Source: an uncultured Gammaproteobacteria bacterium
GTDB taxonomy: Bacteria; Patescibacteriota; Microgenomatia; Levybacterales; UBA12049
Assembly: GCA_964653195.1 (NCBI GenBank)
Contig: CAZZCX010000003.1
Coordinates: 11,688 to 75,687 of the forward strand
Length of the DNA: 64,000 nt
Direction: 5' to 3'
Below are positions 2,748-43,243 of the stretch, in pieces. Position numbers and translations under genes: made by a program. Position 1 is the first letter of the stretch. Each line of letters begins with the position of its first letter. The notes below the pieces were generated by a model. The model saw nothing but the letters and a program-made list of their open reading frames with translations, did not search any database and was not told the DNA's origin.

Positions 2748-2791
2748 TCTCCTGTTTATTTCTCGGGTTTAGATTGTGATATTATGAGTAT

Positions 2792-24233: not shown

Positions 24234-24274
24234 ATAAACATTTTAACAGAATATAATGATTTCTTGAATATGTC

Positions 24275-25627: not shown

Positions 25628-25911
25628 TTTGCGTTTTTATTTATAAAGCTAGATTCTATTTTTAACGCAGCTTTGTGTATGAGTTCGTAAATATTTTTTA
25701 CCATATCGGCGTCAAGATTATGAGCTTTTGCCAGTGTTATTTTAGTTTTTAATACTTCTGTCCATCTGTTCTTATCTAACGGCGGTAAACCTTCTCTTTT
25801 CTTAAGTGCGCCTACTTGTTTAACTAACTTCATACGCATTGAGAGTAGTTCTATTATTTCTTCATCTACTATATCTATTTCATTTCTTAATAAAATTAAT
25901 GGGTTTTTCAT
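25624..25911 (-). CDS. Chorismate mutase (AroQ class). The ORF track start at 25971 overlaps the upstream gene; the internal Met at 25911 is more likely.
   Basis: LRNEIDIVDEEIIELLSMRMKLVKQVGALKK matches the AroQ helix-1 pattern (R..ID.iD..l..Ll..R). Confidence 0.7.
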   Translation of the reverse strand: MKNPLILLRNEIDIVDEEIIELLSMRMKLVKQVGALKKREGLPPLDKNRWTEVLKTKITLAKAHNLDADMVKNIYELIHKAALKIESSFINKNAK

Positions 25912-25918
25912 ACTTTTA

Positions 25919-27448
25919 TTATAACCTATACCGTAAAGGTGAAAAATCTTCAGCAGGCATATTTCCTTCAATATTTTTTCCTATCTCATTATCGACTATA
26001 GCAATTGGTTCATTTTCTCCTCTAATTTTTCTATTCCAGCCTTTAATTAGGGCATGAGAGAGACTAACTAGTTCATTGCCTTGATCAAAAGTATTTAATT
26101 CATCATCCCACACGTCTAATGTGTCTTGTGCTTCATTCCTTCCAAAAGTTAATTCTAGTACATTTCTAGTATTTATGTCTCTTAATCCTTCTGGAGCTCT
26201 TTGCAGGGCTTGCGGGTCAGGATCTTTAGACATAATCTGCCATCTTTTAGTTAAAGTATTGTTGTCTTCGTCATCATTTAAACTGTCTATTGCTAAATCA
26301 CTTGCTAGACGAGCAGTTACTAAGCAATTAGCTAATGCAATTCCCGGAGACCTTTTACGATTATTTGTCCAATAAGATGGTCCGACAGCATCACCTACTG
26401 CCTTTAGATTTCTCATTCCCTTAACGCTGACACCATCAGTTGTCACGGTTCCTAACTGACTATAGTGAACTGATACACCGGCAATATGTTCTTCTCCTGT
26501 CATATTGTCTACGATCCTGACATTCCCGCCTTGATCAGAAAATCTTAATGCGATTTCTCTAAATTTATCATGAGCCATATGATTTCTCAGCAAATATGTT
26601 GTTTCTGTGTCTATTTGTCCATTAGGTAAATACACCGTACTATTAGCTAAATCATCTGTTTCATAGCAGCCAAATGCTGGTTGTCCATCTACTCTCTTTC
26701 TGCCAAAAGGGTGAAGCATGTTAATTGTTGTGCCTGTTATGGGTAATCCTGCTTTATAAAGTAGTTGAGTAGCTGAGTAATCTATAGGTATATTGGTCGA
26801 TTTATATAGTGAACCGCCAGCGTTTCCGTTTGCTAGAATTACCATCTCGGGACTTAACGAAAATCCTTCGTTCCTGTTTTGAGCTACATTTAGTTGAGTT
26901 ATTAAATTATGTTGTCGAGTTAGAGAATAAACTTCTCCTTGTAAAAATGCAATTCCCATATTTAAAGCTAGTCGTTTCAATTCTGATAAAATGCTGTAGC
27001 CCCGTCCTTTTCCGCCTTGATTAGGTACTCCCCATTGAGGACCAAACCATATCGGGTTATCGTGTACTAGTTCGGGATCAATATCTATAAGTCTTTTGTT
27101 CCATGTTTCTAATTCTTCAGCGAGTAATCCCGCAAAATGAATCATTTCTGGAGATTTATTGCCATCGTTTTGTTTTGATAAAAGTGAGACGACTTCAGCT
27201 TCTTGCTCAAATCTATCATCAGTTCTTGTTCCGGTTCCTCTTGCTCTGATTCGCATCCCGGCAATACGGGTATTGCTTTGGGGTCTTGGTTTTTCAATTA
27301 TTACGACTTGCATATCATCATTACATTTTTCGGCAAGTTGAATAGCTGTCAGTAGACCTGCAAAGCCTGCTCCAACTATACAGGTTAGAGGTTTATCACC
27401 TCTGAGTCTGCTTACTTCATTGAGACTATTTTTAGTAATAGATGGCAT
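25919..27448 (-). CDS. FAD-dependent oxidoreductase of the succinate dehydrogenase/fumarate reductase/L-aspartate oxidase flavoprotein superfamily
   Basis: An N-terminal dinucleotide fold CIVGAGFAGLLTA. VHYSQLGTVTTDG resembles the HY.MGG motif. AVGDAVGPSYW...RSPGIALANCLV resembles the C-terminal AvGD...G.NRL.sNsL motif. Confidence 0.5.
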   Translation of the reverse strand: MPSITKNSLNEVSRLRGDKPLTCIVGAGFAGLLTAIQLAEKCNDDMQVVIIEKPRPQSNTRIAGMRIRARGTGTRTDDRFEQEAEVVSLLSKQNDGNKSPEMIHFAGLLAEELETWNKRLIDIDPELVHDNPIWFGPQWGVPNQGGKGRGYSILSELKRLALNMGIAFLQGEVYSLTRQHNLITQLNVAQNRNEGFSLSPEMVILANGNAGGSLYKSTNIPIDYSATQLLYKAGLPITGTTINMLHPFGRKRVDGQPAFGCYETDDLANSTVYLPNGQIDTETTYLLRNHMAHDKFREIALRFSDQGGNVRIVDNMTGEEHIAGVSVHYSQLGTVTTDGVSVKGMRNLKAVGDAVGPSYWTNNRKRSPGIALANCLVTARLASDLAIDSLNDDEDNNTLTKRWQIMSKDPDPQALQRAPEGLRDINTRNVLELTFGRNEAQDTLDVWDDELNTFDQGNELVSLSHALIKGWNRKIRGENEPIAIVDNEIGKNIEGNMPAEDFSPLRYRL

Positions 27449-27450
27449 AT

Positions 27451-28233
27451 TTATTTAATTGACTCCATTAATTTATCAAATTCATTCCAAGTGAGTTGTT
27501 GTTTGGCATCGGTTTTGGCATTTTTGGGATCTGGGTGAACTTCTATAATCCATCCATCATAAGAGTGTTTCCGAGCTTGCTTTGCAATTTTATGTACATT
27601 CTCGACAGTCCCGCCGGTATGTGATGGATCGAAGATCATGGGTAGCTGAAATTCCCGTCTTATCTCCATAGCCATTTCATGATCTGGAATATTTCGAAAG
27701 CTGTGTGGATTTGGTGAGTGCGGGACATGTGGTACAAATCCTCTATGACAGATCATAAATCTGTTTTTGGGCATATTAGCAGCTAAGACATGCTCTACTA
27801 TGCCTTCCCAATGTTTCTTATGATGCCATGGCTGATTTTTCACCATAAGTGTAATTCTTTCATCTTTTGCGACAAATTGAGCAATTTCTCTTTGTATGAA
27901 ATGGTTTTGATTTCTGGCACCGATCCATAGTAGTAGATTAGCTTTCGGGTTTTCCTGAAATACTACATCAGCTACGTGCTCAGCATGGCCTGGAGTGAGC
28001 ACCTCAACACCTGGATTCACTCCCTTTGAGACTGCAATTTTCAGAAAGTGAGAGCCATCCATTCCCAATCCTTCATATCCGGGTTTTGTTCTGGGTTTCC
28101 AGAGGGTGAGACGCATGAAATCTATATATGGTCGTTTGTTTATTTCCTTAATTGATGCGCGCAATACTTCATCAGATTCAGTATTGCACGGTCCTATAAT
28201 TAGGATAGGTTTTTTCGATTCTTTATTTTTCAT
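27451..28233 (-). CDS. 3-deoxy-D-arabino-heptulosonate-7-phosphate synthase, short type I-beta (the DAHPS/KDO8PS family; KDO8P synthase is not excluded)
   Basis: IIGPCNTES (GPCxxES), KPRTKPGYEGLG (KPRTSP..FqGLG), IGARNQNHF and DPSH motifs are present. The 260-aa size matches unregulated archaeal-type DAHPS. Confidence 0.65.
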   Translation of the reverse strand: MKNKESKKPILIIGPCNTESDEVLRASIKEINKRPYIDFMRLTLWKPRTKPGYEGLGMDGSHFLKIAVSKGVNPGVEVLTPGHAEHVADVVFQENPKANLLLWIGARNQNHFIQREIAQFVAKDERITLMVKNQPWHHKKHWEGIVEHVLAANMPKNRFMICHRGFVPHVPHSPNPHSFRNIPDHEMAMEIRREFQLPMIFDPSHTGGTVENVHKIAKQARKHSYDGWIIEVHPDPKNAKTDAKQQLTWNEFDKLMESIK

Positions 28234-28235
28234 AT

Positions 28236-29150
28236 TTATAAAACTATCTTAGAAAAGTATGAACGTATTCCTTCTAGGTCTGTACTTTTTTTCAAGTACA
28301 TCATATCGAAAATTTCCATTTCTGATCTAGTTGGAATTGCAGCAGCATTTCCTAGTTTTGTGCATTGTAGACCACCAACAAAATTACCAAAAGTTGCGCA
28401 TTTTATATGATCCCAACCTTTTATAATCCCGTATGCAAATGCACCCCTGTATACATCGCCTGCGCCAACTGTGTCAATTACAGATACATCATACGCCTGG
28501 ATATGGCGCAATGTTTTGCCATCGTATATTAAACTTCCTAATTTACCCGCAGTTATTATAAGCTCTTTACCGTTATATAATTTTTGAATTGATTTCAACA
28601 AATCGTTTGAATCAATTTTTACCAGCGATTCTATAGGGAGTATAGGAAAATCAGCGTTTCGGATCATATCTAATGTAAATTCAGATATTTCAATAGATGG
28701 GTCAATTATTATCTTGGCTTCCAATTTTTTCTTGTCCATAATTTCATAAAACGCTGTTTTTTCATGTCTATCAATAATTATTAAATCGAATTGACGTAAA
28801 AATTTTCTATCAAGGTTTTTGATATCTAAATGAATAGTATTGCCTCGAATTTTCTCTCTCTGCCCTGTATCAATAGGTACTAGTATAGTATTTATCTTCG
28901 TCCTTTTTTGAATTTTATGATGTAATTTTATATTTTCGTGTTTTATAGTTTTTTTTATTATTTTAGCTTCTGAATCTCTCCCAAGAGATGTCACCAGAGT
29001 ACAATCTATATTCAATCTTGAGAGCACAATAAGAGCTGACAGTACGGGACCACCAACATGAGTCTTGGTTTTTATCACTTTTTTCTCCTTTAAATTGTTT
29101 ACCACAATTACTCTATCAATTATTGATTCACCTATGCCTAGTACTTTCAT
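28236..29150 (-). CDS. PfkB-family carbohydrate/nucleoside kinase (ribokinase fold)
   Basis: The PfkB signature DTVGAGDVYRGAF lies near the C-terminus. An N-terminal GG dipeptide region is present. Confidence 0.75.
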   Translation of the reverse strand: MKVLGIGESIIDRVIVVNNLKEKKVIKTKTHVGGPVLSALIVLSRLNIDCTLVTSLGRDSEAKIIKKTIKHENIKLHHKIQKRTKINTILVPIDTGQREKIRGNTIHLDIKNLDRKFLRQFDLIIIDRHEKTAFYEIMDKKKLEAKIIIDPSIEISEFTLDMIRNADFPILPIESLVKIDSNDLLKSIQKLYNGKELIITAGKLGSLIYDGKTLRHIQAYDVSVIDTVGAGDVYRGAFAYGIIKGWDHIKCATFGNFVGGLQCTKLGNAAAIPTRSEMEIFDMMYLKKSTDLEGIRSYFSKIVL

Positions 29151-29165
29151 ATTTATTTTTTAACC

Positions 29166-29192
29166 ACAAAAAAACCTCCCTTTCGGGAGGTC
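29166..29192 (-). terminator. Intrinsic terminator of the thrS-infC-rpmI-rplT operon
   Basis: Plus-strand aaaaaaacctccctttcgggaggtcc. On the minus strand this reads a 7-bp GC stem, a GAAA loop and T7. Confidence 0.7.
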
Positions 29193-29297
29193 CAGTAATC
29201 TGGTTTTCACTAGTGTTTAAGCACTAGCTTTCCTCCCGGGTTGGGAAGTAAAATAAAACCAAAAATATGCAAAAGAGTTAGTCATGTAATTATTATA

Positions 29298-32284: not shown

Positions 32285-32350
32285 TACATAATGATTGTGA
32301 AATATGCCGTAAATAATTCAAAGAAACACCTCTCGTAAGGAGGGGTTTTC

Positions 32351-33691
32351 GTGTTATTTAATTACGACCCCTCTGAAGAGGGGTTTTTTAGTGGAATAAA
32401 TATGAAAGAAAAATATAACAGAATAATTGCACATTCATCTGTCGAAGCTTATCGAAATGATGGTGATGATGAAGATAGGTACTATATACCTTGGCGTGTT
32501 GCTGCAGAAGCTGCAGGAAGAATCAAAAACGGCGAAAGAGTACTTACAGTGCTACCTAGAAAGGATAGGTTTAATGAATACCTTACGTTATTAAGTGAGG
32601 TATTACTAAAAGGTACCCCAATACCCATATTGTTTACTCCAGATAATGATTATTTGATGGACGTTGATATAAGACACCATTTATTGCCACAATTGTCGGG
32701 CATGGTAGATAGAGATACCACAGTCATTCCCTATCAAGCAACAAATGAATTTTATGACTGGGCTCAGGTTTTAGAGCAGGAAAAGGGTATAAAAATCTAT
32801 GCAGATCGTAAAAGAGAAGATTTAAGATTCTGGTGGGGTCATAAAGGAGCTTATCATAGATGGATAGATGATATTGAAACTCCATCTCCGTATGAAAATA
32901 TAGGTATTTCTATCCCTAGAGGTTATATAGCTCAGAATTATGAAGAACTTGAAGGTGCCAGAAGTTTATTGGGGTCAGGAATAGTCGTTAAGCCAATTTT
33001 TGGTGCTGGAGGTTTTCAGATTGAGAAATTTGGCGAAACTGAAAATTTATCAGGATATGACTGGCCAATTGATCCACATACTAAAAGAAATATGCCAGTT
33101 GCAGTGCAGGAGTGTTTGCCGATCTCAAATGATATATTTGGCGAGAGAGTCTATTCACACCAGTTTGCAGGACAAAAATTACAAGGACGACTGACAAGGC
33201 AAATTATGGATTCTGATACAGGTAGGCAATGGATAGGCAATAGAATTCCTGCAGGTGTTTCAGTTGATTTCGAACGAAAAGCTGACAGAATGTGTGAGAT
33301 GTTAATAGATCGAATTAATCCTCTTGGTGATGGCGGAATAGATTTAGCTGAAGTATTAGGTGAACCTGTATTGATAGAAGTAAATGGTGGCAGGCCGACA
33401 GGGGCGACAGGTCCTAAGATATTTCAAGCATCTTTTGCTCCTGATGCTCCGCATTTTATTTTTACTAAAGTAGCACCAAATGGCTATTCAGCTCATGATG
33501 CGTGGGACAGTTTGCATAGAGTTACTGGACCTAGATCAAAACGGAAAATAGTTTTTCAAGAAAGAACTAGACGAGGTGTATTCCCAATGGTTTGGTTGAA
33601 TGATTCGTGGGGTATGCTTGCAAGCTTTGGTGATTCATATGAGGAAGCTGACTCGCAGCTAAAACAAGCGCGTGATAAATTAGGAGTATGA
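32351..33691 (+). CDS. ATP-grasp family ligase of unknown specificity. The GTG start at 32351 has an AAGGAGG 7 nt upstream; the alternative ATG is at 32402.
   Basis: ATP-grasp hallmarks are present: IVVKPIFGAGGFQI (the K and glycine-rich loop) and VLIEVNGGRPTG (the C-terminal Mg/ATP site). The roughly 180-aa N-terminal region is unassigned. GC is higher than the neighbours. Confidence 0.6.
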   Translation: MLFNYDPSEEGFFSGINMKEKYNRIIAHSSVEAYRNDGDDEDRYYIPWRVAAEAAGRIKNGERVLTVLPRKDRFNEYLTLLSEVLLKGTPIPILFTPDNDYLMDVDIRHHLLPQLSGMVDRDTTVIPYQATNEFYDWAQVLEQEKGIKIYADRKREDLRFWWGHKGAYHRWIDDIETPSPYENIGISIPRGYIAQNYEELEGARSLLGSGIVVKPIFGAGGFQIEKFGETENLSGYDWPIDPHTKRNMPVAVQECLPISNDIFGERVYSHQFAGQKLQGRLTRQIMDSDTGRQWIGNRIPAGVSVDFERKADRMCEMLIDRINPLGDGGIDLAEVLGEPVLIEVNGGRPTGATGPKIFQASFAPDAPHFIFTKVAPNGYSAHDAWDSLHRVTGPRSKRKIVFQERTRRGVFPMVWLNDSWGMLASFGDSYEEADSQLKQARDKLGV

Positions 33692-34752
33692 ATACAGCAA
33701 TGATTAATTTATTTTTGGACTTAGTTAAAATTGATAGTCCCACTGGAGAGGAAGCAAATGTATTGAAATACGTAAATACATTTCTTAAGAAATTTGGAAT
33801 AAATTCACACTTTGACGATTTCGGTAATTTATATGCAAAGATCGATGGATTTTTAAATCCAATTCTACTTTCTGCACATGCTGATACTGTTGAGCCGGGA
33901 AGAAATATAAAACCGAAGATAATAGACGGAATTATAAAAAGCGATGGGAAAACGATACTTGGTGCGGACAATAAAGTAGGCCTTGCAGTGATTCTTGACA
34001 CAATTCGCGAGCTAATTGAAAAAAAAATACCTCATAGAAATTTAGAATTTGTGGTTACGAGATCTGAAGAATCAGGTAATTATGGAGCTATAAATTTGAA
34101 CTATTCACAAATATCTGCAAAAATCGGTTATATATTTGATAATAGTAACCCAATCGGAACTATAATTTCCGCATCACCCTTTTATTACCGATTTGACATG
34201 AAATTTATTGGTAAAGCTGCGCATGCATCTAGTCCTCAAAAGGCAATTAATATACTACCTGCGTTTTCTGATTTTATAAATTCTATAAAACTTGGAAGAA
34301 TTAATGAACAATTGATAGCCAATATTGGAGTAATAAATTCGGGTCATGTGCGAAATTCAATTCCAGGGGAATTATATATTGAAGGAGAGGTACGGGGGTT
34401 CAAAAACGATGAAGTCCAAGAGTTTTTAAATATACTGATCTTGAATGCAAAAAAATCAGCCTACAAATATGGTTGTAAAATAAAATATGAAACAGTTTGT
34501 GAGAATAGCGGATATATGTATTATAGAAATGATCAGTTTATAAAAGAGACTATAGTAAAAATGAGATTAATAAAGCGTCAATTTAGACTCAAAAAATCCT
34601 TAGGATGTTCAGACGCAAATATTTTTCAGGAACACGGGATAAAGGTGCTAGATTTGGGAGATGGCTCGAAGAATTCACACACAGTAAATGAATCTATAGA
34701 AATTAAAAACTTATTAAATTTGAAAAGTTTACTTATTTCTTTGGTGACCTAA
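33688..34752 (+). CDS. M20-family metallopeptidase (PepT/tripeptidase-like)
   Basis: HADTVEPG and DGKTILGADNKVGLAVIL (metal-binding Asp) and the RSEESGNYGA (Glu-Glu) motif. A 4-nt ATGA overlap with the upstream gene indicates coupling. Confidence 0.7.
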   Translation: MNTAMINLFLDLVKIDSPTGEEANVLKYVNTFLKKFGINSHFDDFGNLYAKIDGFLNPILLSAHADTVEPGRNIKPKIIDGIIKSDGKTILGADNKVGLAVILDTIRELIEKKIPHRNLEFVVTRSEESGNYGAINLNYSQISAKIGYIFDNSNPIGTIISASPFYYRFDMKFIGKAAHASSPQKAINILPAFSDFINSIKLGRINEQLIANIGVINSGHVRNSIPGELYIEGEVRGFKNDEVQEFLNILILNAKKSAYKYGCKIKYETVCENSGYMYYRNDQFIKETIVKMRLIKRQFRLKKSLGCSDANIFQEHGIKVLDLGDGSKNSHTVNESIEIKNLLNLKSLLISLVT

Positions 34753-35111: not shown

Positions 35112-35699
35112 CTATAATCCTAGTTCTTTATGAATCCCCTGCATTGCTTTTAGTACGATTGAAATAAATTCCTTTAGTGGGATTTTCAGTTTATCTTCAC
35201 AAAGCAATATTGATTCTCTTTTTGCTCCTTTTGCAAATGCTTTTTCTCCGAAACGTTTCAATATATACTCTGGTGTGAGTGATTCAAGTTTTTTATCTGG
35301 GTGTACAAGTGCGCCAGCGACAATAAGGCCAGTAAGCTGATCTGCGCAGAATATTGCCCAATCAAGTGTTGAATTTGGCATCACACCTGTCATTTCGAAA
35401 TTGTGTGATTTGATAGCATGAGCAATTGGTTCAGGAATTGCATCGGGTTCGTATTCTTTTTCAAAAATTAGTTTTCCATGCAAATCCAATCTATTTGTAT
35501 TTTGTGCGACTTCATAATCTATATCATGAAGTAAGCCTGTTATTCCCCAAATTATTTCATCGTTTTCTTTTTGTTTATCATTTGGTGTCAAATATTTATA
35601 TATCCCTTTCATTGCTGCTTCTGCAGCTAAGGAATGCTTGATAAGATTTTTATTTTGAAGATATTTGGTGAGTAATTTGTACCCTTGATTTCTATCCAT
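35112..35699 (-). CDS. HD-domain phosphohydrolase
   Basis: HSLAAEAAMKGI ... GLLHDIDYE (the H...HD metal-binding pattern). Confidence 0.65.
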   Translation of the reverse strand: MDRNQGYKLLTKYLQNKNLIKHSLAAEAAMKGIYKYLTPNDKQKENDEIIWGITGLLHDIDYEVAQNTNRLDLHGKLIFEKEYEPDAIPEPIAHAIKSHNFEMTGVMPNSTLDWAIFCADQLTGLIVAGALVHPDKKLESLTPEYILKRFGEKAFAKGAKRESILLCEDKLKIPLKEFISIVLKAMQGIHKELGL

Positions 35700-35703
35700 A
35701 AAG

Positions 35704-35777
35704 TGGGCCCGAGAAGATTCGAACTTCTGACCTTTGCAATGTCAATGCAACGCTCTAACCAACTGAGCTACGAGCCC
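35704..35777 (-). tRNA. tRNA-Val (anticodon GAC)
   Basis: Manual fold of the reverse complement: acceptor GGGCUCG/CGGGCCC, D-loop AGUUGGUUA, anticodon stem UUGCA/UGCAA with loop UUGACAU, and T-arm AGAAG-UUCGAAU-CUUCU. No encoded CCA. Confidence 0.8.
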
Positions 35778-35895
35778 AAAAAACTAGGTTCAATTGTAAC
35801 AAAATGAATATGCGAAAACAACGTACATACAATTTTATACCAATCATTCATGTTATAGAAATACTTTCTTAATTATATAAAAAACTAATATATAC

Positions 35896-36714
35896 TTAAG
35901 AAGATTTATATCTTTGAAGATAAGTACCTAATTCAGGAACATTATTTATGTAATGGTATGGGGCTGTCAGTAAACCAGATAGATTTGGACCAACTAATAT
36001 ATTACTTCCAGTCGCATTATTTACAAACGCGGGAATATCATTATGGTCGTTGCCAGCAAATAATACATCTGTTGGGTCAAAACCTAATAACTCCCTAATA
36101 TCACTCAGTCCAGTACCTTTATCAATACCGCGCCTATTAACATTTACTAGTCCTTCGTTTGTACTAGCGTTAATACCATTTGGTAATGCTGTAATCCATT
36201 CGTCATTTAGGGGTTTAATTGCAAGCATACTGGGATTATCGATTTTTGCCTTATGTTCGAACGAACTTGGAGGTAGGTGAGAAACTACTGCAAAATGTCC
36301 ATATTTTTTTTGTAATTGTTCTGCGTTGCTAGCGTTAGGAGTCCAGACAACAGCTTTTCTACGTGTCTTCTCAGGAAAATAAGCAACGAAATTGACGTCT
36401 CCCATAAGTGTGGCGTCTACAACTGCGGTTATTTCACTTGAATGCAATGGATGGTATATGATGTTTTGCCTGCCTCCCCATTTTGTAATCCTTGAACCAT
36501 TTTCTAAACCAACGAGAATTCCTCTTCTGACTAATGATGGGTAATTTAAGCCTAGTGCTTCTCGAGCCCGCTTATAGCCTCTTCCTGTAAGTATTGTGGT
36601 AATTACTCCTTCTGAATAAAGATTGCGAAATCCTTCTATAACTTCAGGCGGTATCCCCTCACTATTTCGTATTGTGCCATCAATATCAAAAATACCCAAT
36701 CGTATGTTTTCCAT
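35896..36714 (-). CDS. HAD-superfamily hydrolase (Cof/HAD-IIB-like phosphatase)
   Basis: Motif I FDIDGTI near the N-terminus and motif III/IV AGNDHNDIPAF near the C-terminus. Confidence 0.7.
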   Translation of the reverse strand: MENIRLGIFDIDGTIRNSEGIPPEVIEGFRNLYSEGVITTILTGRGYKRAREALGLNYPSLVRRGILVGLENGSRITKWGGRQNIIYHPLHSSEITAVVDATLMGDVNFVAYFPEKTRRKAVVWTPNASNAEQLQKKYGHFAVVSHLPPSSFEHKAKIDNPSMLAIKPLNDEWITALPNGINASTNEGLVNVNRRGIDKGTGLSDIRELLGFDPTDVLFAGNDHNDIPAFVNNATGSNILVGPNLSGLLTAPYHYINNVPELGTYLQRYKSS

Positions 36715-36747
36715 AAATATAAATTATACTATAGGATTATTAAAAGA

Positions 36748-37596
36748 TCAAATTAAAGCTCCGATTGAGGCAGGATGATTTATTGTGGTTATTTTAAACT
36801 CTCGTGCTTGCATAAATTTAGGTAGTTTTTTTGAATAATTCTTTGTAACTTGCGGTAACCATGATTCCGCAGATTTAGTTACAGAACCTCCAAATACAAA
36901 CAATTCCGGGTTATAGAAATAAGATAAGTTCACGATAAAGTTACTTAGATAGTTCACATACATAATTACAATATCATTATGTTTTCCATCAAATATTTCT
37001 TCAGGCGGGAGGATTTTACCTGTTTTATAAATACTTAACGACTTTAGACCCTTACCTGCTAAAAGATTATCTGCGGTTTCAAATTGTTTTTTTTCATAAC
37101 TCCAAATATCCATGGGAGATATTTCTCCAGCCATATTACTAGAACCCCTTAAAATAATGCCATTCTCTATAGCAACTACGCGAATACCTGTGCCTAAGTT
37201 TATGTAGACTAAAGAATTATGTTTTTTACCGTACCCATATAATTTTTCTGCTTTTGCCATGCATATAACATCGTTATCTGAATCAAAAGATTTGTAGTTT
37301 AGATACTTGTTTGCAATAGAACTAATATCAACCCCATTTCCTCCGTTTATTAAACTGGAATATATAATTCTGTTATTCATAATCGCACAATTTATACTTA
37401 CACCAAGTTTTTCATATCTTGAACCTCCAAATTCATTAGCTATAAGCACAAAAAGATTTTTAAGATCATTTAAATTTTTATGTTTAAATAAAATCGTAGT
37501 ATCTAGGCGTATTTCTTTTATTATTTCTAGGCTTTTAGTAAATTCTACACAAAGTATTTTTGTACCGCCTATGTCGATGGAGAGAAATTTTTTCAT
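36748..37596 (-). CDS. ROK/BadF-type sugar kinase (ASKHA fold)
   Basis: N-terminal LSIDIGGTKI phosphate-1 motif. GGSVTKS lies near the C-terminus. Confidence 0.6.
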   Translation of the reverse strand: MKKFLSIDIGGTKILCVEFTKSLEIIKEIRLDTTILFKHKNLNDLKNLFVLIANEFGGSRYEKLGVSINCAIMNNRIIYSSLINGGNGVDISSIANKYLNYKSFDSDNDVICMAKAEKLYGYGKKHNSLVYINLGTGIRVVAIENGIILRGSSNMAGEISPMDIWSYEKKQFETADNLLAGKGLKSLSIYKTGKILPPEEIFDGKHNDIVIMYVNYLSNFIVNLSYFYNPELFVFGGSVTKSAESWLPQVTKNYSKKLPKFMQAREFKITTINHPASIGALI

Positions 37597-38741
37597 TTTT
37601 TTATATAATAAAATGGCTTGTTTTCTTTATCTTCTTTCCAGTAGACCCTAATAAATGTTTCCTTCATTCTCAATACATCGATTAGATATTCAATAGTAAA
37701 TATATTTTTTTTCACATGAAAAACAGGGACACCATGATACGGAAGTCGAATACAATTTTTATTTACTGGAATTATACCTAATCGATTTGGTTTAGGAGAA
37801 ACTGAAAGTGTAATTGCGTTAGGTACAGTTTTCTCAATAAAATTTAAGTCATCTCTTACCATTAAGTATGCATGATAGTTTAACAAAGTTTCATGGGTCA
37901 TAGCTTTTATATATTTTCGTATTTTCACTACTTCTGCTGTCGCTATTTTATTTCTGAGTTTTATATTATATACATCCATAAGTACCGAATTAGATACACC
38001 TAGATCTCGTGTATTAATTATTCTAGAAATGGAAAGCTTAGCTCCTTTATATTTTTTTAAAAAGTTTTTATCGGCATTTAGATAAAGGTTTTTAAGTTTA
38101 TTTACTTTTTCACCAAACACATCATTGAAATTATTTATCAGTTGTTCCATACTTTCCAATTCAACTATAAATAGTGAATTATCCCAGTTGAATTTTTTTA
38201 TAATTTCTATTAACAAGTCTTTATATGAATCATACTCAGATTTATCCATCTTGTTATACCTTCCAAATACACCTTCAGTCACAATTGTTATCTTTGCCCC
38301 AGGTTTATAGACCTTGCGAATTAACTCAGTTAGAAAATGTAATCTTTTTAAAGATAAAACTTCTCCCATATCAGGGAGCGATCGATTAGTTTTTATTGGA
38401 ACAGGCATTTTAAACGGAAAACCAAGAATTGTCAGCTGTATTGGTTTATTTTGATTTATAAAATATTGAAATGATTCTAGCCAGAAATCAGTGTTGTCAA
38501 TAACAAATTTTTTAGGCCCAAAAATAATTTCATCATCTACGAAAATATTTAGAATTTTTTCAGCGATAGAATTACCACTTAGAATTAATTCTGGATAAGA
38601 TAAAGAAGATAGTAGATCTTTCAAGTTTTCTGTAGAAGCTAATCGGTTCGGTTTAAATACCGCTTTAATTTGCTTCTTAGATAAATCCATGAAGTTCGTA
38701 CTTGGATAAACATATGGATTTGATTTCATTTTCATATTCAT
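37593..38741 (-). CDS. Uncharacterized enzyme-like protein, distant paralog of the upstream 435-aa ORF
   Basis: It shares a conserved block with 38741-40048: LSLKRLHFLTELIRKVYKPGAKITIVTEG versus AEFEMLRYQAVMGRVAKEIGLNINFTIVDET. It is coupled to both neighbours by overlapping stop/start codons. Confidence 0.35.
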   Translation of the reverse strand: MNMKMKSNPYVYPSTNFMDLSKKQIKAVFKPNRLASTENLKDLLSSLSYPELILSGNSIAEKILNIFVDDEIIFGPKKFVIDNTDFWLESFQYFINQNKPIQLTILGFPFKMPVPIKTNRSLPDMGEVLSLKRLHFLTELIRKVYKPGAKITIVTEGVFGRYNKMDKSEYDSYKDLLIEIIKKFNWDNSLFIVELESMEQLINNFNDVFGEKVNKLKNLYLNADKNFLKKYKGAKLSISRIINTRDLGVSNSVLMDVYNIKLRNKIATAEVVKIRKYIKAMTHETLLNYHAYLMVRDDLNFIEKTVPNAITLSVSPKPNRLGIIPVNKNCIRLPYHGVPVFHVKKNIFTIEYLIDVLRMKETFIRVYWKEDKENKPFYYIKK

Positions 38742-40048
38742 TATTTATTATTTCTTATTCTTCCAAGCATAGGTTTGTTATCTAGATAAACCAATTGCGC
38801 TTCGCAGACATTTTGCATTTCCTGAAGCACATTAAATGGGATATTTCCGACATAATCATTATTGGAACCGTACCCAGCTATTCCATGCATAGGATTGACA
38901 GTTCTTCCCATAAATTTAGTTGGATGAGGTAGAAAGCTCCACCTATGTGTACTTCTCGTTACGCCTCCATAAACTCTACTCTCGTCTTGATATTCGGGAT
39001 ATTCTGCGGTTAAGCCTTTTTCTTGTACAGCTTGCTTTGCTTTACCCCTCAAAGCCATCATAGCATCTATATGCGTAGTTAAACCAGTTAAATATTGAAG
39101 TGTTTCTTGAGGTAAACTGCCGAAATCGCCACTCATTGCAGATTTTCTAATATAATCTATTGCATCAGGATCTACTCCTTGTGCAATTAAGCCACTGTCG
39201 GGGATGCAATCTAAGAGGGTGTATATCCTTCTCATAAGAGCATTGTTTTGTCTGGGTTCTTTTAATAGTCCAGCAGTTTTATCTTTAGATAAAATTAACT
39301 GGTCTTCATATGCAGCGTGGAATTCATCTCCAATAGGAAGAGCTATTGAATCCCTTAGAGACCTAATACGAATTCGGTCTGAAACTCCTTGTTCTTCTAA
39401 GTATCTAGTTGCAATTAAACGGTTTACTTTAGAATCACTATTATTAAAACCTAAATACGGATCTTCGGGTAATATATCTGTTTCGTCAACGATTGTAAAA
39501 TTTATATTTAAGCCAATTTCCTTTGCTACTCTTCCCATCACTGCTTGATATCTTAACATTTCAAATTCTGCATAATCTATCTTAGTATCTGGAGAGCCTG
39601 TTCTACTAGGCGATTGTGTTTTGCTCAAAGCATAATATTGAACCAGATTTACTCCTATTCCGTTGGCCGCTCGTTCACAAAAATGAGTTATATCTTCTTC
39701 TGTCGGTTTATATGCATCATTCCCGGTGGCGACCCAAGGTTTTATAAATTCAGAATAAAAAGCTCCTGCGACTTTAACTGTGGAATTTGCTGATTCTCTA
39801 ACTCTTACAGGCAATCCTTTTCTCATTTCCTTAATATTTAATCTTTTTTCAATTACCTCAAGCCGTTTGCTTACTTCATCGTCAATATCAAAGGTATTTA
39901 AACCTTCTTTTTTAGCGACTCGTTGTAAATCAAAGTAATATAAATCAGCAGTTCTCTCTTCTTCCGAACGTTTTAAATCTGGACCGAATAATAAATCGCC
40001 TCGCCTAGAATGTGTTATTGGTTTATTTCTTTCAATCGACATAACCAT
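38741..40048 (-). CDS. Uncharacterized enzyme-like protein (435 aa), with non-K/N-rich composition and higher GC than the background
   Basis: A long ORF with no family recognised by eye. Its start is immediately preceded by a hairpin and T7. Confidence 0.35.
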   Translation of the reverse strand: MVMSIERNKPITHSRRGDLLFGPDLKRSEEERTADLYYFDLQRVAKKEGLNTFDIDDEVSKRLEVIEKRLNIKEMRKGLPVRVRESANSTVKVAGAFYSEFIKPWVATGNDAYKPTEEDITHFCERAANGIGVNLVQYYALSKTQSPSRTGSPDTKIDYAEFEMLRYQAVMGRVAKEIGLNINFTIVDETDILPEDPYLGFNNSDSKVNRLIATRYLEEQGVSDRIRIRSLRDSIALPIGDEFHAAYEDQLILSKDKTAGLLKEPRQNNALMRRIYTLLDCIPDSGLIAQGVDPDAIDYIRKSAMSGDFGSLPQETLQYLTGLTTHIDAMMALRGKAKQAVQEKGLTAEYPEYQDESRVYGGVTRSTHRWSFLPHPTKFMGRTVNPMHGIAGYGSNNDYVGNIPFNVLQEMQNVCEAQLVYLDNKPMLGRIRNNK

Positions 40049-40226
40049 AAAAAAACCCGCCTATTGGCGGGGATCCTTTCTTTTGGTTGATACCAAAAAT
40101 CCTCCCGCCCTTAGGGGGTAATAAGGAGGACAAAAATCATGTTTAATGCGTGTTTCATAAAACCAGAAATTTATTCTAGCACATCATTAATTGCATGACA
40201 AGTATTTATTTGAATATGAAAAATCT

Positions 40227-41063
40227 TTATGTAAAAATTACTTGTGAGCTAGGCGTTAGTCCAAATTCCTTCGCAGCACTTTCTCCTTGAATCACAAGCT
40301 CAATAAATCGTTTATCTTTATACCCAGAGCTTCCGAGAATTAGCGCTTTATTACCATTAGGTACGTCTCTGAGCCTGGTAAAGCATTTAAATACACCTAA
40401 ATTGGTGTTTATATCTTTTCCATTTTCAAATTCGATTTCTTTCGGAAGAATAGTTGTTTTACAGTTTCCGAAATTATCGACGTACCAAATGGCACTCTTT
40501 ACTTGAGGTACATGGCTAAGGGTGTAGGATGCAGCAGGTACGGTTATCCCGTCCACCAGCCATTTTGCTACTCTTGGCTGGAATTCAAAGCTTCGGAACT
40601 GAGTATTTATTATTTGCATAGCTAGGACGACTGAGATGATTTTATCCTCTGCCATTTTATTTGCGACTTCGGGTATATCTAGCAGTTGAATAGAATTTAT
40701 AAGTCTAAGTTTTTTCACCATTGATAATGTTAACCCATCAATTGTTGAAATAACGAGCGTATCATTGATGTAGAAATATCCAAAAGGAGTGCCGTTAGGC
40801 CATTTTTTCCCCTTGCCATGGCGATTGGCTACGTTTACAAGTATTATTCCTTTTTCGCCATTTGCTGCATCCAGTGTGTCTATAAGGCATCCGGCTGCTT
40901 GGTATTCTGCGGGGTCATGAGAATTATTAGATACAAGATTTCCTCCTACTCCAATTATCGTTGGAGATATTCCGAAAAGTGAACTCACTCTCGTCCCAAG
41001 TCTGGCTTTTACGTTCTCATCGAAGCAATCGTTAATTATAGTAATAAATCTCGTTTTTTCCAT
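40227..41063 (-). CDS. DUF62 / S-adenosyl-L-methionine hydroxide adenosyltransferase-like protein (the fluorinase/chlorinase SalL fold family)
   Basis: The C-terminal IWYVDNFGNCKTTI resembles the D.FGN..TNi motif of the SAM-hydrolase C-domain. The N-terminal ITIINDCFD and the central YFYINDTLVISTIDGLTLS resemble the TDFG and PDNGLLS blocks. The match is by eye only. Confidence 0.45.
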   Translation of the reverse strand: MEKTRFITIINDCFDENVKARLGTRVSSLFGISPTIIGVGGNLVSNNSHDPAEYQAAGCLIDTLDAANGEKGIILVNVANRHGKGKKWPNGTPFGYFYINDTLVISTIDGLTLSMVKKLRLINSIQLLDIPEVANKMAEDKIISVVLAMQIINTQFRSFEFQPRVAKWLVDGITVPAASYTLSHVPQVKSAIWYVDNFGNCKTTILPKEIEFENGKDINTNLGVFKCFTRLRDVPNGNKALILGSSGYKDKRFIELVIQGESAAKEFGLTPSSQVIFT

Positions 41064-41248
41064 AAAAAAACCTCCTTTCGGAGGCTGTTCGTAATAGATA
41101 CTATAACGAAACCTCCGTTAGGAAGTCATCATTTCCATCATATTTACTGAATAAATTTTCATATAGATTACTCTACTTTATATACGATTTTAATATCAAA
41201 TTCAATAAGCAAATTGAGTTAATTTTGAATTCTGAATTCTAAATTCTA

Positions 41249-41944
41249 TTATCCTGTTTGCGTTGCTGGAGTGCGTTCGTTATTTAGAGTAAAGCTGGTA
41301 CCATGTTTTTTAGCCATTGCGCCATATTTCTTTAGTGATTTTTTACTTTTCATCACAGAAAGCCACGCGCCAGCATCTTCAACTTTCATTCTTATTTTTC
41401 TGACCTCCAATAGCAACCATTCAAAAAAATTAGTGTAATACTTACCGGATTTGATGGGCTTATCTTCAACAGTAAGGACAGCAAATTCAGCTTTTAAAAT
41501 GCCAGACGAACCAATTAATCGTTTAAGTTCATTCATGATATCTTCTATTCTATTCTCAAGCTGTACAGCCTCACTTCTTGATAATCGTTCTGAGCCCTGA
41601 ATTACCTCAGCTCTATAATTAATTCCTCCCAGAATATCCATTCGCTTTTCGGGTCTTCGACTTTCAGTTTGATTCTTTTTTGTTCTAATATCATGATTTC
41701 TTTTGCTTTTTAAATCTATTGCCTGGCCTTCAATCATTACGCCACTGAAATAATTATCTGATCTTTCAGTACTATCATAGCCTAATAGCTGAGAAATAAA
41801 GTCTGAACCTGTGCCTGATAGCTGATCTTTTATTGCACTTGTAGTTTTTTTTAATTCTGATGCAGCAGTAGAATTATCCAGTTGAGGATCTTTTTCTATA
41901 GGATTAACTTTGCTTATGGCAGGCTGACTGGCTTTTTTGATCAT
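41249..41944 (-). CDS. Hypothetical protein
   Basis: A 231-aa ORF with a hydrophilic N-terminus and no recognised motif. Confidence 0.3.
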   Translation of the reverse strand: MIKKASQPAISKVNPIEKDPQLDNSTAASELKKTTSAIKDQLSGTGSDFISQLLGYDSTERSDNYFSGVMIEGQAIDLKSKRNHDIRTKKNQTESRRPEKRMDILGGINYRAEVIQGSERLSRSEAVQLENRIEDIMNELKRLIGSSGILKAEFAVLTVEDKPIKSGKYYTNFFEWLLLEVRKIRMKVEDAGAWLSVMKSKKSLKKYGAMAKKHGTSFTLNNERTPATQTG

Positions 41945-41959
41945 ATTGCCCGCACTCTA

Positions 41960-42805
41960 TCACAAGTTTTTCAAAAAATCAAGGGTCTTTTGCTGTCTAA
42001 GTATACTTGCTAGCATATAACTGTTTTTTTGTAAGTTTTCCATCTCTATAGGATCTTTTGCTTTTTGAATTGCTTCTTTAAGCTCTTTATCCTCAATTGT
42101 TATCTTTTCTTCTTCAGCAATTTTTTGAAGGATAAACTCTAGTTTTATGTCACCTTCTGCTTTGACTGCATATTCATTACGTAGTTCTTCTGGCTTTTTT
42201 TGTGTAGACGCAAGATACTGATCAAGCGTAAGTCCTAAACGTTTAATTTCATCTAATGTTTGAGCAAGTAGCCTATCCACTTCCTGTTCAATCATTATTG
42301 TAGGGACTGAAACTGTTGAGGCACCCAAAAGTTCTTTTACGATTTCATCAAGACTTACTTCTTGCTTCTTTTCTTCTTTACCTGGCAAGATTATTTTAGA
42401 TTTGGCAGTAACTTTTTTTATTGCATCTTTATATTTGCCTAGCTTTACTTCAGGCATTTCACAAGTTATAGCAATTATATTCCAGTCTTTATCATCTGGG
42501 AGTGTATCGACATGAATTTTTGGATTCATGATTGGTTTTATTTTATGTTCTTCAACAGCTTTGACATAAGCATTTGGTAGTAGTTTTCTTAGTACTTCTT
42601 CTTTGATCTTAGCTTTATTTATAGTAGGTTCTACTATATGACGGGGTGCTTTTCCTTTTCTGAATCCGGTTATTTCGGCATTAGATACGTAAGTTGTGAT
42701 TATTTCATCTGTAGTTTTTTTTATCTCAGGCTGAGTAATGCTGATCGTTAGATGGATCGTACCATCTTCTTTGCGTTCAAATTTGGAGTTAGATATATTT
42801 GTCAT
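41960..42805 (-). CDS. tig: Trigger factor (ribosome-binding N-domain plus C-domain; no PPIase domain)
   Basis: The ribosome-docking signature GFRKGKAP is at the expected position. The 281-aa length means the FKBP domain is absent. Confidence 0.75.
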   Translation of the reverse strand: MTNISNSKFERKEDGTIHLTISITQPEIKKTTDEIITTYVSNAEITGFRKGKAPRHIVEPTINKAKIKEEVLRKLLPNAYVKAVEEHKIKPIMNPKIHVDTLPDDKDWNIIAITCEMPEVKLGKYKDAIKKVTAKSKIILPGKEEKKQEVSLDEIVKELLGASTVSVPTIMIEQEVDRLLAQTLDEIKRLGLTLDQYLASTQKKPEELRNEYAVKAEGDIKLEFILQKIAEEEKITIEDKELKEAIQKAKDPIEMENLQKNSYMLASILRQQKTLDFLKNL

Positions 42806-42916
42806 AGTTTAATATGTGCGGGCGAGAGGATCCTTCGACTATGCTCAGGATCTAACTTACCAGCTTTTTTTCAGTTTCCTCAAATTTAAAACTTCGACTC
42901 TGAGTTTATCGAAGAG

Positions 42917-42997
42917 TGCGGGCGAGAGGACTCGGACCTCCACGGATTTCTCCACAAGGTCCTAAACCTTGCGTGTATACCATTTCACCACGCCCGC
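42917..42997 (-). tRNA. tRNA-Leu (anticodon UAG)
   Basis: Reverse complement: acceptor GCGGGCG/CGCCCGC, anticodon stem CAAGG/CCUUG with loop UUUAGGA, and a long variable arm. Confidence 0.7.
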
Positions 42998-43243
42998 AGG
43001 TATATGTCCTCGTCTTCCCTAGGCAAGCTTATTTATTATAAAACATTTTAGACTAAATGAAAATAGATGTATATTTAAATGTATCTAGGTTTACAAAATT
43101 GATTTGAGGATACAATATGGAGTTTTTCCACAAAAAATAGGATCGCCTCAGGTTTGGGCTGAGGCCATCCTATCTAGGCGTGAGTATAGCATTTAACTAT
43201 AGGTTTGTCAAGTAGCAATTTATGATGTTTTTAATACGATTCT

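Follow-up and report, generated by a model that had tools for sequence, protein, structure and literature searches.

The window analysed here, a stretch of 64,000 nucleotides from a Candidate Phyla Radiation (CPR) genome (contig CAZZCX010000003.1), carries on its minus strand a compact gene cluster at 35896-41063. The best explanation for this region is that it comprises two independent amino-acid-supply units, each placed behind a leader-peptide transcription attenuator. The first unit contains a divergent DUF62-fold protein behind a methionine-rich leader. The second, referred to as the DIT1 operon, contains two enzymes of the DIT1/PvcA fold, a ROK-family sugar kinase and a HAD phosphatase behind a leader rich in codons for hydrophobic amino acids. 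We lean slightly towards the DIT1 operon serving hydrophobic amino-acid supply and propose, as its best reading and at a little less than an even chance, that it frees hydrophobic amino acids from sugar-amine conjugates. The original prediction, made from the sequence alone, had drawn five minus-strand open reading frames (ORFs) in this cluster, all of which were present where it had placed them, and had joined them into one pathway converting S-adenosylmethionine (SAM), 5'-deoxyadenosine or methionine. That pathway did not survive the analysis, as the DUF62 gene has its own leader and terminator and adjoins the other four genes in one lineage only. The idea of an undescribed system was retained for the four-gene cassette, which is conserved and for which no description was found, and was dropped for DUF62, which is not part of it.

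Two remote paralogs of the DIT1/PvcA fold

The two largest genes of the cluster, encoding proteins of 382 and 435 amino acids (aa), had been regarded as paralogs that could not be placed in any family. They are indeed paralogs, though remote, and only the larger one lacks a sequence-family match. The 382-aa protein (37593-38741, minus strand) is a clear member of PF05141 (DIT1_PvcA; 85.8 bits, cutoff 26.4; E=4.5e-24; model covered from position 2 to 260 out of 273), matched PvcA (3e59) by sequence with E=4.9e-12 and keeps the PvcA motifs. Its score against the NCBIfam PvcA equivalog NF045653 was 53.1 bits, far below the cutoff of 600, and it is therefore not a PvcA ortholog. It belongs to a canonical CPR subfamily of at least 124 clusters, mostly from Patescibacteria, and its CPR relatives carry the NCBI name 'L-tyrosine/L-tryptophan isonitrile synthase family'.

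The 435-aa protein (38741-40048, minus strand), hereafter the type-A partner, had no Pfam, NCBIfam or PDB sequence match. None of the 23 members of its family matched Pfam, even at E<=1, and BLASTP against the 382-aa protein gave no match. When the family profile was run against PDB sequences, only FIS matches were returned (E ~0.07), which were discarded as spurious, and HMMER profiles did not bridge the two families. Their relationship emerged from hhalign, using alignments of 23 members for the 435-aa family (A1) and 31 members for the 382-aa family (A2). The 435-aa family against the single 382-aa sequence reached a probability of 1.4%, and the comparison of family against family produced a collinear match of 328 columns (E=6e-4). 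Motifs resembling those of PvcA were visible in A1. The fold search was decisive. The AlphaFold2 (AF2) model built from A1 had a predicted local distance difference test score (pLDDT) of 88.7 and a predicted template-modelling score (pTM) of 0.87, and its top eight Foldseek matches in the PDB were all PvcA (3e59) or PIsnA (9dh4, 9dhm), with E=8e-9 to 1.6e-7, probability 1.0 and a TM score (target) of 0.56-0.65, the next match falling at 4.6e-3. Judging from this model, the 435-aa protein is almost certainly a DIT1/PvcA-fold paralog of the 382-aa protein. The DIT1/PvcA fold check that had been suggested was thus positive for both large ORFs, through Pfam for the 382-aa protein and through Foldseek for its partner.

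Residues were mapped between the families through a global hhalign alignment of poorer score (E=0.0086), in which 31 aligned positions were at least 90% conserved in both families, 15 of them being identical. Among the identical residues (435/382 numbering) were K143/K111, T150/T118, D158/D124, E161/E127, E189/E156, R334/R296, R369/R320 and H388/H336. Since the two families share these conserved polar residues, the 435-aa partner looks catalytically competent rather than a decayed copy. The 435-aa family is small, numbering 23 clusters among 5.8e9 proteins and, in a set of 1.84e9, 55 representatives. In some members the domain is C-terminal within longer proteins (L005:62-4294, 1410 aa; L008:2699-4930, 743 aa), and other long representatives (P0274-P0296) measure 576-952 aa; the N-terminal 300-420 residues of these long proteins had no Pfam match. 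The higher GC content ascribed to the 435-aa gene was rejected as stated, as its value (0.363) lies near the window mean (0.347) and it is the 382-aa and ROK genes that are low (0.283 and 0.305, respectively). The encoded protein is, as claimed, poorer in lysine, asparagine and isoleucine, with a combined fraction of 0.17 versus about 0.30 in its neighbours.

The guesses of a sugar kinase and a HAD phosphatase for the two remaining genes were borne out. The ROK protein (36748-37596, minus strand; NanK/NagK-like) matched PF00480 with E=4e-21, and the nearest solved structure was the N-acetylmannosamine kinase of F. nucleatum (FnNanK, 5nck; E=8.7e-13, full length). Following published motif definitions (PMC5458393), it carries DIGGT at residue 8 and the catalytic NDVI at residue 108, EISP replaces the ExGH sugar-binding motif, and both the CxCGxxGC zinc motif and a DNA-binding domain are missing. 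FnNanK also lacks the zinc site and nonetheless keeps its active-site architecture. The HAD-IIB (Cof-type) phosphatase (35896-36714, minus strand) matched PF08282 (E=1.6e-16) and TIGR01484 (43.6 bits, cutoff 41.8), with intact motifs DIDGT at residue 10, TGR at 43 and GNDHND at 221. The tight coupling proposed for these four genes applied to the 435/382 junction (TAATG, 1-nt overlap) and the 382/ROK junction (ATGA, 4-nt overlap); it did not extend to the ROK and HAD genes, which do not abut and are separated by a spacer of 33 nt.

A probable leader attenuator precedes the DIT1 operon

The 178-nt gap between the DUF62 and 435-aa genes contained a promoter-like site, a leader ORF and a terminator. 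The promoter-like site (40173-40201, minus strand) comprises a -35 box TTGTCA (40196-40201), a 17-nt spacer and a TG-extended -10 box TAGAAT (40173-40178), matching the consensus hexamers at 10 of 12 positions. Both hexamers are kept in the closest relative of the window, L028, despite diverged surroundings. Downstream lies a leader ORF of 15 codons (MKHALNMIFVLLITP, ending at its stop codon; 40111-40158, minus strand), rich in Ile, Phe, Val and Leu, whose 3' half forms segment 1 of the attenuator (40114-40131). The G-rich segment 2 (GGGCGGGAGGA; 40100-40110, minus strand) comes right after the leader stop codon and opens the remainder of the attenuator (40049-40110, minus strand), which continues with a small hairpin, segment 3 (CCCGCC), segment 4 (GGCGGG) and a run of seven U residues. 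The terminator itself (CCCGCC-AAUA-GGCGGG plus U7; 40049-40071, minus strand) ends at the ATG of the 435-aa gene. This ORF begins with ATG GTT ATG TCG (40042-40048, minus strand) and, because the L028 ortholog aligns from the second ATG (MS.ER...), its true start is probably the ATG at 40042 (MSIER...), which would place the U-run 6 nt farther from the start codon.

The leader folded with -50.6 kcal/mol (z=-4.4 relative to shuffled controls). In the full leader, segment 1 paired with segment 2 and the 3:4 terminator formed. When segment 1 was masked, the 2:3 antiterminator of the window (-18.0 kcal/mol) outcompeted the terminator (-11.6 kcal/mol), and the antiterminator (-14 to -21 kcal/mol) likewise beat the terminator (-8 to -13 kcal/mol) in 7 of the loci in which the stop codon of the short ORF (sORF) abuts segment 2. 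The G-rich segment is duplicated, segment 2 being able to pair with either segment 1 or segment 3. Conservation was pronounced in L028, where a stretch of about 95 nt that starts at the inner Met codon and extends to the U-run was nearly identical while the proteins were 72-75% identical, and where the frame of the leader peptide (MKLTKNMIFVLLITP) was kept through the diverged 5' part. An sORF followed by a terminator was present in 12 of 12 evaluable type-A loci, with leader peptides such as MKTRVLSIIFVLFILITA and, outside the window and L028, peptides of the type MK..VLSIIFVLFILITA, and the RNAalifold consensus of 9 leaders contained both the 1:2 stem and the terminator. No Rfam family matched the DIT1 leader. 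In loci with other partner types (B and C, see below), leaders were often longer and rich in Tyr, Phe and Trp; those of type B were heterogeneous, and the L018 and alphaproteobacterial loci had no leader. We consider it highly probable that these leaders are real attenuators, their response to charged-tRNA supply being predicted from the sequence. With a promoter and an attenuator of its own, and with the anatomy, conservation and alternative pairing described above, the DIT1 operon reads as a separate unit (unit 2, 40201-35896).

Several leaders had additional features. A second, very hydrophobic sORF (e.g. MEQVAKLLIVIFFLIIIFAFD) followed the terminator in L030, L033, L034 and L037 and was broken by an early stop codon in L035 and L036, and L033 (~1-110) seemed to contain two tandem leader/terminator units. 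In the window, the attenuator segment GGCGGGAGGA had a second exact copy at 37004-37013 on the plus strand, antisense inside the ROK gene. With one mismatch at most, this segment matched 5 times in the window versus 0.8 expected, and two of these matches, at 42821 and 42921, lie beside or overlap a tRNA-Leu gene.

The DUF62 gene forms a separate unit behind a Met leader

The identification of the gene at 40227-41063 (minus strand) as DUF62 was confirmed by Pfam and by a full-length fold match. Its 278-aa product matched PF20257 (SAM_HAT_C) with 30.9 bits (cutoff 25.5, E=3.5e-7). PF01887, the N-terminal DUF62 domain that had also been put forward, gave no match at E<=0.01, and the best match of the family profile to PDB sequences (E=0.057) covered the C-terminal domain only. 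With the AF2 model (pLDDT 90.3), the top 31 Foldseek matches were all DUF62 structures (E=4e-12 to 8e-7, ~300 columns, TM 0.6-0.68), and no other structure appeared below E 0.08. Both D12 and the D196-x-FGN motif were invariant throughout the clade of the window protein. This clade is CPR-wide, with at least 894 clusters labelled at source as SAM hydroxide adenosyltransferase or chlorinase/fluorinase, and its spread is about 7 times that of the canonical DIT1 subfamily and about 40 times that of the 435-aa family.

Upstream of the gene we found a Met leader ORF (MKIYSVNMMEMMTS; 41118-41162, minus strand) with four Met codons in five positions, followed by a terminator hairpin (GCCUCCGAAAGGAGG) and U-run (41064-41086, minus strand) ending at the DUF62 start codon. 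The segments CUUCC and CGGAGG, located upstream of this terminator, permit alternative pairing. The orthologous leader in L028 reads MIYKNTNMMEMMTS, and Met-rich leaders with terminators preceded DUF62 in three of four other CPR genomes, L041 (MTHITVSMMNMMQTP), L042 (MHYIKVENMMAMMMTS) and L043 (MLVINNMMGMRSLPARRGA), so that five lineages, including the window and L028, share this arrangement. In the fourth genome, L044, the DUF62 genes lack a Met leader and are preceded by tRNA genes instead. Two DUF62-like genes stand there in tandem (1501-2301 and 2391-3212). L041 carries a tandem heptamer, (GCGAATA)n, of about 8 copies between DUF5660 and the DUF62 leader (~1255-1310).

Adjacency of DUF62 to the cassette was confined to the contigs of the window itself and to L028, which keeps the full synteny (trigger factor-DUF5660-DUF62-435-382). 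In four other CPR genomes, the gene after DUF62 was not DIT1-like; the 547-584-aa genes that follow DUF62 elsewhere were tested as type-B DIT1 partners and rejected. Because it has its own leader and terminator, belongs to a wider family and adjoins the cassette in one lineage only, we hold with high confidence that DUF62 is a separate transcription unit (unit 1, 41162-40227) outside the cassette. Within this unit, DUF62 would hydrolyse SAM to adenosine and L-methionine when Met-tRNA is short, SAM hydrolysis being the most likely activity in view of the modelled fold and the leader.

Other leaders in the window serve as controls

A window-wide scan for strong hairpins with a U-run directly before long ORFs returned four solid sites, all of which (4/4) had an sORF. 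Weaker sites at 54283, 57053 and 59887, located before a DNA methylase, a response regulator and an unknown protein, respectively, were set aside as ordinary terminators. A leader rich in Phe, Tyr and Trp (F/Y/W; MTNSFAYFWFYFTSQPGRKASA; 29217-29285, minus strand; terminator at 29168-29190) precedes an operon of six genes (23196-29150, minus strand) that encode a PfkB kinase, a DAHP-synthase-I-family protein, a flavin adenine dinucleotide (FAD) oxidoreductase, chorismate mutase, a fused prephenate dehydrogenase/dehydratase and PheS, the PheRS alpha subunit. No aminotransferase gene was present within this Phe/Tyr operon. A Phe/Tyr biosynthesis operon under attenuator control is unexpected for a CPR genome. 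On the basis of this operon and of the Met-DUF62 pair, we infer that leader codons in this genome report the amino acid supplied by the downstream genes; by the same token, hydrophobic amino acids should be what the DIT1 operon makes more available.

Another leader (MIVKYAVNNSKKHLS; 32291-32338, plus strand) has a TTGACA/TATAAT promoter and a terminator at 32368-32389 (fold z=-3.9). It precedes an ATP-grasp ligase gene (32402-33691), whose start is probably the ATG at 32402 (429 aa) and not the GTG at 32351, and a PepT-like M20 peptidase gene (33688-34752), both on the plus strand and overlapping by 4 nt. The Asn-Asn and Lys-Lys codons of this leader may be regulatory, and the ATP-grasp/M20 pair recalls ligase-hydrolase pairs of the LysX/LysK type. 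M20 peptidases also lie inside the DIT1 cassettes of other genomes.

The DIT1 pair and the ROK kinase form the conserved cassette

In order to evaluate conservation, we collected 23 species-representative genome loci for the 382-aa family and 9 metagenome loci for the 435-aa family, together with the contigs of individual homologs and two annotated plasmids. This amounted to about 34 non-redundant loci, mostly CPR, which were annotated with hidden Markov models (HMMs) of both DIT1 families and by comparison with the window proteins. A second DIT1-fold gene adjoined the canonical DIT1 in 28 of 31 evaluable loci, and in 21 of 29 ROK was the next gene after DIT1. Nine cassettes contained a HAD homolog, and 7-9 cassette loci an M20 peptidase. 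The partner gene belonged to one of three types that interchange between lineages: the 435-aa family, including fusions of 743-1410 aa (type A), weakly DIT1-like proteins with E=1e-4 to 1e-10 against the A2 profile (type B), and near-canonical DIT1 proteins (type C). Beyond the cassette, the context differed from locus to locus. Among about 60 annotated neighbours in the ~34 loci, no PvcB/IsnB-type Fe(II)/2-oxoglutarate oxygenase or other tailoring gene was found, and the window ATP-grasp gene did not occur near other cassettes at E<1e-6. From these gene orders, the conserved unit is the DIT1 pair plus ROK, DUF62 not being included.

Some neighbours were recorded individually. A LeuA-type 2-isopropylmalate/citramalate synthase (L016:4195-5769), a PEP-mutase/ICL-family protein with a class I/II aminotransferase (L019:1223-3186) and a class III aminotransferase (L031:7547-9238) each stood beside a cassette, and a 333-aa P-loop protein with weak AAA/ABC-type Walker A matches was inserted between the partner and the canonical DIT1 (L027:6971-7972). 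We first took the genes upstream of the L027 and L007 cassettes for LeuC/D/B, wrongly, as they proved to be PGM/HAD/PGI and AI-2E/RsmI/MetRS. Cassette loci with CPR-type partners were also found on contigs labelled as a Promethearchaeota metagenome-assembled genome (L026, WJKO01000785.1) or as uncultured Gammaproteobacteria (L005, L019, L020, L022); such labels likely reflect contigs of CPR origin that were binned or labelled wrongly, or else horizontal transfer.

The cassette was also present in cultured alphaproteobacteria. In Consotaella and Tropicimonas, the DctPQM genes for tripartite ATP-independent periplasmic (TRAP) uptake are followed by DIT1, ROK and a second DIT1. On an Agrobacterium conjugative plasmid, TRAP-DIT1-ROK lies near a GntR regulator, a type II asparaginase, an AraC regulator and a ROK regulator, and the same island encodes a FrlC-like fructoselysine 3-epimerase (E=6.6e-39), two GlmS-isomerase/NagB-II-like SIS proteins, an amino-acid ABC transporter and a NagK-like BadF kinase. 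On a Microvirga plasmid, the same divergent AraC+SIS pair is followed by TRAP-DIT1-ROK-DIT1 and then by co-directional zwf-pgl-edd. These alphaproteobacterial settings are catabolic and resemble those of the loci for Amadori compounds.

Proposed function of the DIT1 operon and its alternatives

Taking the leader codons as a guide, the DIT1 operon would be induced by a shortage of Ile, Leu, Val or Phe. When the corresponding hydrophobic aminoacyl-tRNAs are low, the ribosome would stall in the leader and cover segment 1, segment 2 would pair with segment 3, no terminator would form and the operon would be transcribed. The ROK kinase would then phosphorylate the sugar part of a scavenged sugar-amino-acid conjugate of the Amadori or Heyns type, an N-substituted amino sugar. 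Isonitrile-synthase chemistry begins with the attack of the amino-acid amine on the C2 keto group of a ketose phosphate. The DIT1-fold pair, probably as a hetero-oligomer, would handle the resulting amine-ketose-phosphate imine, which is the first intermediate of the isonitrile-synthase reaction, in the hydrolytic direction. The products would be the free hydrophobic amino acid and a sugar phosphate, and the HAD phosphatase would remove either this sugar phosphate or a phospho-intermediate that is toxic. An M20 peptidase joins the cassette in other genomes. The amino-acid-supply reading is supported by the ROK protein being nearest to an N-acyl-amino-sugar kinase, by the lack of a PvcB/IsnB-type partner and by the catabolic context in alphaproteobacteria. 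Deglycase-like chemistry in particular, which we propose by analogy, is more tentative than the release of amino acids as such. A broader proposal, also held tentatively, is that the DIT1/PvcA fold has a second, probably older role, in which a heteromeric pair with a dedicated ROK kinase delivers hydrophobic or aromatic amino acids through a non-SIS deglycase or a cofactor-free amino transfer, forming a CPR starvation regulon together with DUF62.

Several observations weigh against the release of amino acids from conjugates. No DIT1/PvcA member is known to work hydrolytically, and CrmA and AmbI make isonitriles or N-formyl amino acids. Kinase-condensation-phosphatase layouts are also typical of biosynthesis, and the role given to the HAD phosphatase is ad hoc. 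All characterised members of the family convert Tyr, Trp or Val, together with ribulose-5-phosphate, into an isonitrile or an N-formyl amino acid (PMC7949033, PMC7345447). In 8 of 29 loci the adjacent ROK is missing, the CPR cassettes have no dedicated transporter, and the M20 peptidase of the window is encoded on the opposite strand, behind another leader. The DIT1 leader shows little covariation (3 of 21 pairs, among close relatives), and its hydrophobic codons are partly forced by the pyrimidine-rich segment 1 and the AT-rich genome. The support from alphaproteobacteria is guilt by association, and two of those loci already hold SIS-type candidate deglycases, which leaves the DIT1 step undefined.

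The main rival, and a serious one, is the canonical chemistry. Hydrophobic amino acids would then be the substrates of the DIT1 pair, acting as an isonitrile synthase or a Dit1-like N-formyl synthase, ROK would provide the ketose phosphate as C1 donor, and HAD would clear a phosphorylated by-product. Such a pathway would yield a small isonitrile or N-formyl amino acid, to serve as metal binder, anti-host toxin or envelope precursor. The PF05141 match (E=4.5e-24), the likeness to PvcA and PIsnA in sequence and fold, the retention of the motifs in common with PvcA and the isonitrile synthase name already given by NCBI to the CPR proteins all speak for it, as do the bracketing by a kinase and a phosphatase, which suits a biosynthetic route, and the paired IsnA paralogs known from the cyanobacterial amb/wel clusters (PMC4236562). 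However, switching on under hydrophobic amino-acid scarcity is the wrong logic for a pathway that consumes these amino acids, and in the two in-window controls a leader of this design matches the amino acid that is supplied. In addition, no locus contains a PvcB/IsnB-type Fe/2-oxoglutarate oxygenase or tailoring gene, M20 peptidases recur, the alphaproteobacteria add TRAP uptake, SIS proteins and Entner-Doudoroff genes, and the PvcA equivalog score is 53 rather than 600 bits. Altogether, we regard isonitrile or N-formyl synthesis as unlikely here. The regulatory argument would lose its basis if the sORFs were hydrophobic membrane peptides or chance ORFs and the hairpins ordinary terminators of upstream genes, functionally uninformative. 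The hydrophobicity of the peptides, some of them 22-45 aa long, the weak covariation and the type-B leaders, heterogeneous and missing in L018 and the alphaproteobacteria, would agree with such a view. It seems improbable in light of a terminator that follows a promoter and ends at the downstream start codon, a duplicated G-rich segment that pairs with segment 1 or 3, the ~95 nt of near-identity between genomes whose proteins are 72-75% identical, the four Met codons in five positions recurring before DUF62 in five lineages and the F/Y/W leader before the Phe/Tyr operon; besides, peptides of 15 aa are too short to span a membrane.

The attenuator logic would also fit a transamination independent of pyridoxal phosphate (PLP), in which the DIT1 pair would form the amine-ketose imine in reverse and move the amino group of an amino-sugar phosphate, produced by ROK, to branched-chain or aromatic 2-keto acids. 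Ile, Leu, Val or Phe and a ketose phosphate would result, and hydrolysis of the latter by HAD would pull the reaction forward, which gives this enzyme a natural role. The products of the branched-chain aminotransferase IlvE are I, F, V and L, exactly the set of the leader; furthermore, the Phe/Tyr operon of the window has no aminotransferase gene, the closest relatives of the ROK protein are amino-sugar kinases, and a LeuA lies beside the cassette in L016. Nevertheless, the family offers no chemical precedent, a 1,3-prototropic shift without PLP is demanding, and TRAP uptake and the catabolic context would be unexplained in alphaproteobacteria, given the ordinary aminotransferases of this group. 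Some cassettes (L019, L031) are themselves adjoined by aminotransferase genes of class I or class III, and the LeuCDB neighbours that we had guessed were not borne out. This possibility appears distinctly improbable. Least probable is the single five-gene pathway of the original prediction, which would lead from SAM, 5'-deoxyadenosine or methionine to a nucleoside or sugar product. In its favour, the genes lie side by side in one orientation both in the window and in L028, and the DUF62 fold was confirmed. Against it, the units differ in promoters, leaders, terminators and regulatory codons, their adjacency occurs in a single lineage among the roughly 34 cassette loci and 5 DUF62 loci, and DUF62 is spread ~7 times more widely than canonical DIT1 and ~40 times more widely than the 435-aa family.

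Comparison with described systems

The fold of PvcA, IsnA and PIsnA (PF05141; 3e59, 9dh4, 9dhm) is common to both large proteins, which share its polar core residues. Unlike those systems, the cassette has no PvcB/IsnB oxygenase partner, and the canonical DIT1 is paired with a second, divergent DIT1-fold gene, usually with ROK, behind an amino-acid-starvation attenuator. Moreover, the 435-aa partner is invisible to the Pfam model and the 382-aa protein falls far under the equivalog cutoff. Two DIT1/PvcA-family genes also stand side by side in AmbI1/AmbI2 and WelI1/WelI2 (PMC4236562). Those paralogs are close relatives accompanied by an IsnB homolog in a large natural-product cluster, whereas the partner in the cassette can barely be recognised as a homolog, occurs in three interchangeable types and has no tailoring genes nearby. 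Yeast Dit1, a member of the family, stops short of a free isonitrile and makes the N-formyl-tyrosine of the spore wall (PMC7345447), and the fold thus supports more than one outcome; Dit1 is eukaryotic, has the P450 Dit2 as partner and comes without kinase, phosphatase or attenuator.

In the Amadori loci fra (FraR/B/D/A/E) and frl (FrlA-D), uptake and phosphorylation are followed by a deglycase that yields a sugar phosphate and an amino acid, and the phospho-intermediate is toxic (PMC12359202, PMC4941530). The same component types are found in the Agrobacterium island (GntR, asparaginase, SIS proteins, FrlC-like epimerase and kinase). The fra/frl deglycases are SIS-domain proteins (GlmS-isomerase-like) and the kinases are of the PfkB type, whereas the candidates here are DIT1-fold and ROK proteins, so that the resemblance would be one of functional analogy only.

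Leader-peptide transcription attenuators control the enterobacterial trp, pheA (pheL), ilvGMEDA, leu and his operons. These have the same sORF with codons for the regulated amino acid over segment 1, the same alternation of 1:2, 2:3 and 3:4 pairings and a terminator before the first gene. What differs here is the CPR host, the salvage-type genes (DUF62 and the DIT1 pair) and the multivalent Ile/Leu/Val/Phe leader. As for DUF62, the full-length two-domain fold is that of the SAM hydroxide adenosyltransferases/(R)-SAM hydrolases, the SalL chlorinase and the FlA fluorinase (2zbv, 2f4n/22uy, 6ryz, 2v7t). Compared with these solved proteins, the window protein has the D-x-FGN motif at the C-terminus, an identity of 12-16%, a CPR-specific clade and an N-terminal region unmatched by Pfam. 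The role proposed for DUF62 hydrolases is the removal of the inactive (R)-SAM epimer (bioRxiv 10.1101/2025.08.29.672840), and the Met leader points to methionine recovery beyond this role.

Searches of the literature available to the analysis found no paper joining isonitrile synthases with Patescibacteria or isocyanide synthases with ROK kinases, nor any on leader-peptide attenuation in Patescibacteria. Neither the folds of the enzymes nor the classical type of attenuator is new; no description was found of the cassette, of the way it is regulated or of the function implied. If the proposed function is true, a fold known only from isonitrile natural products would have a primary-metabolic role, ultra-small and auxotrophic CPR bacteria would possess a new route to hydrophobic amino acids, and an amino-acid-starvation regulon would exist in organisms thought to be devoid of amino-acid metabolism. 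The CPR DUF62 clade gains a testable role, the recovery of methionine from SAM on Met starvation, and the 435-aa family illustrates how far the DIT1 fold can drift with its polar core kept. Leader-peptide attenuation is apparently common in CPR bacteria, and codon content could be used as a functional label for unknown genes of uncultivated organisms. The divergence of the 435-aa family also bears on genome mining, where a search for 'isocyanide synthase' clusters would otherwise wrongly count these loci as natural-product clusters.

Flanking genes

The cluster is flanked on the HAD side by a tRNA-Val gene (35703-35777) and on the other side by a short trigger factor of 281 aa (41960-42805, minus strand), as had been noted; the count of five co-oriented genes in between was one short, since a sixth, identified by Pfam as DUF5660 (41249-41944, minus strand), lies between the DUF62 gene and the trigger factor. 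Within 35600-43200, Rfam recovered tRNAs only, apart from a sub-threshold anti-hemB match (22 bits, cutoff 49.5) that was rejected as chance. The trigger factor consists of Trigger_N and Trigger_C domains without a PPIase domain between them. Together with the labels of homologs, DUF5660 and this short trigger factor point to a CPR origin. DUF5660 directly follows the trigger factor gene in both the window and L028, and it also precedes DUF62 in L041.

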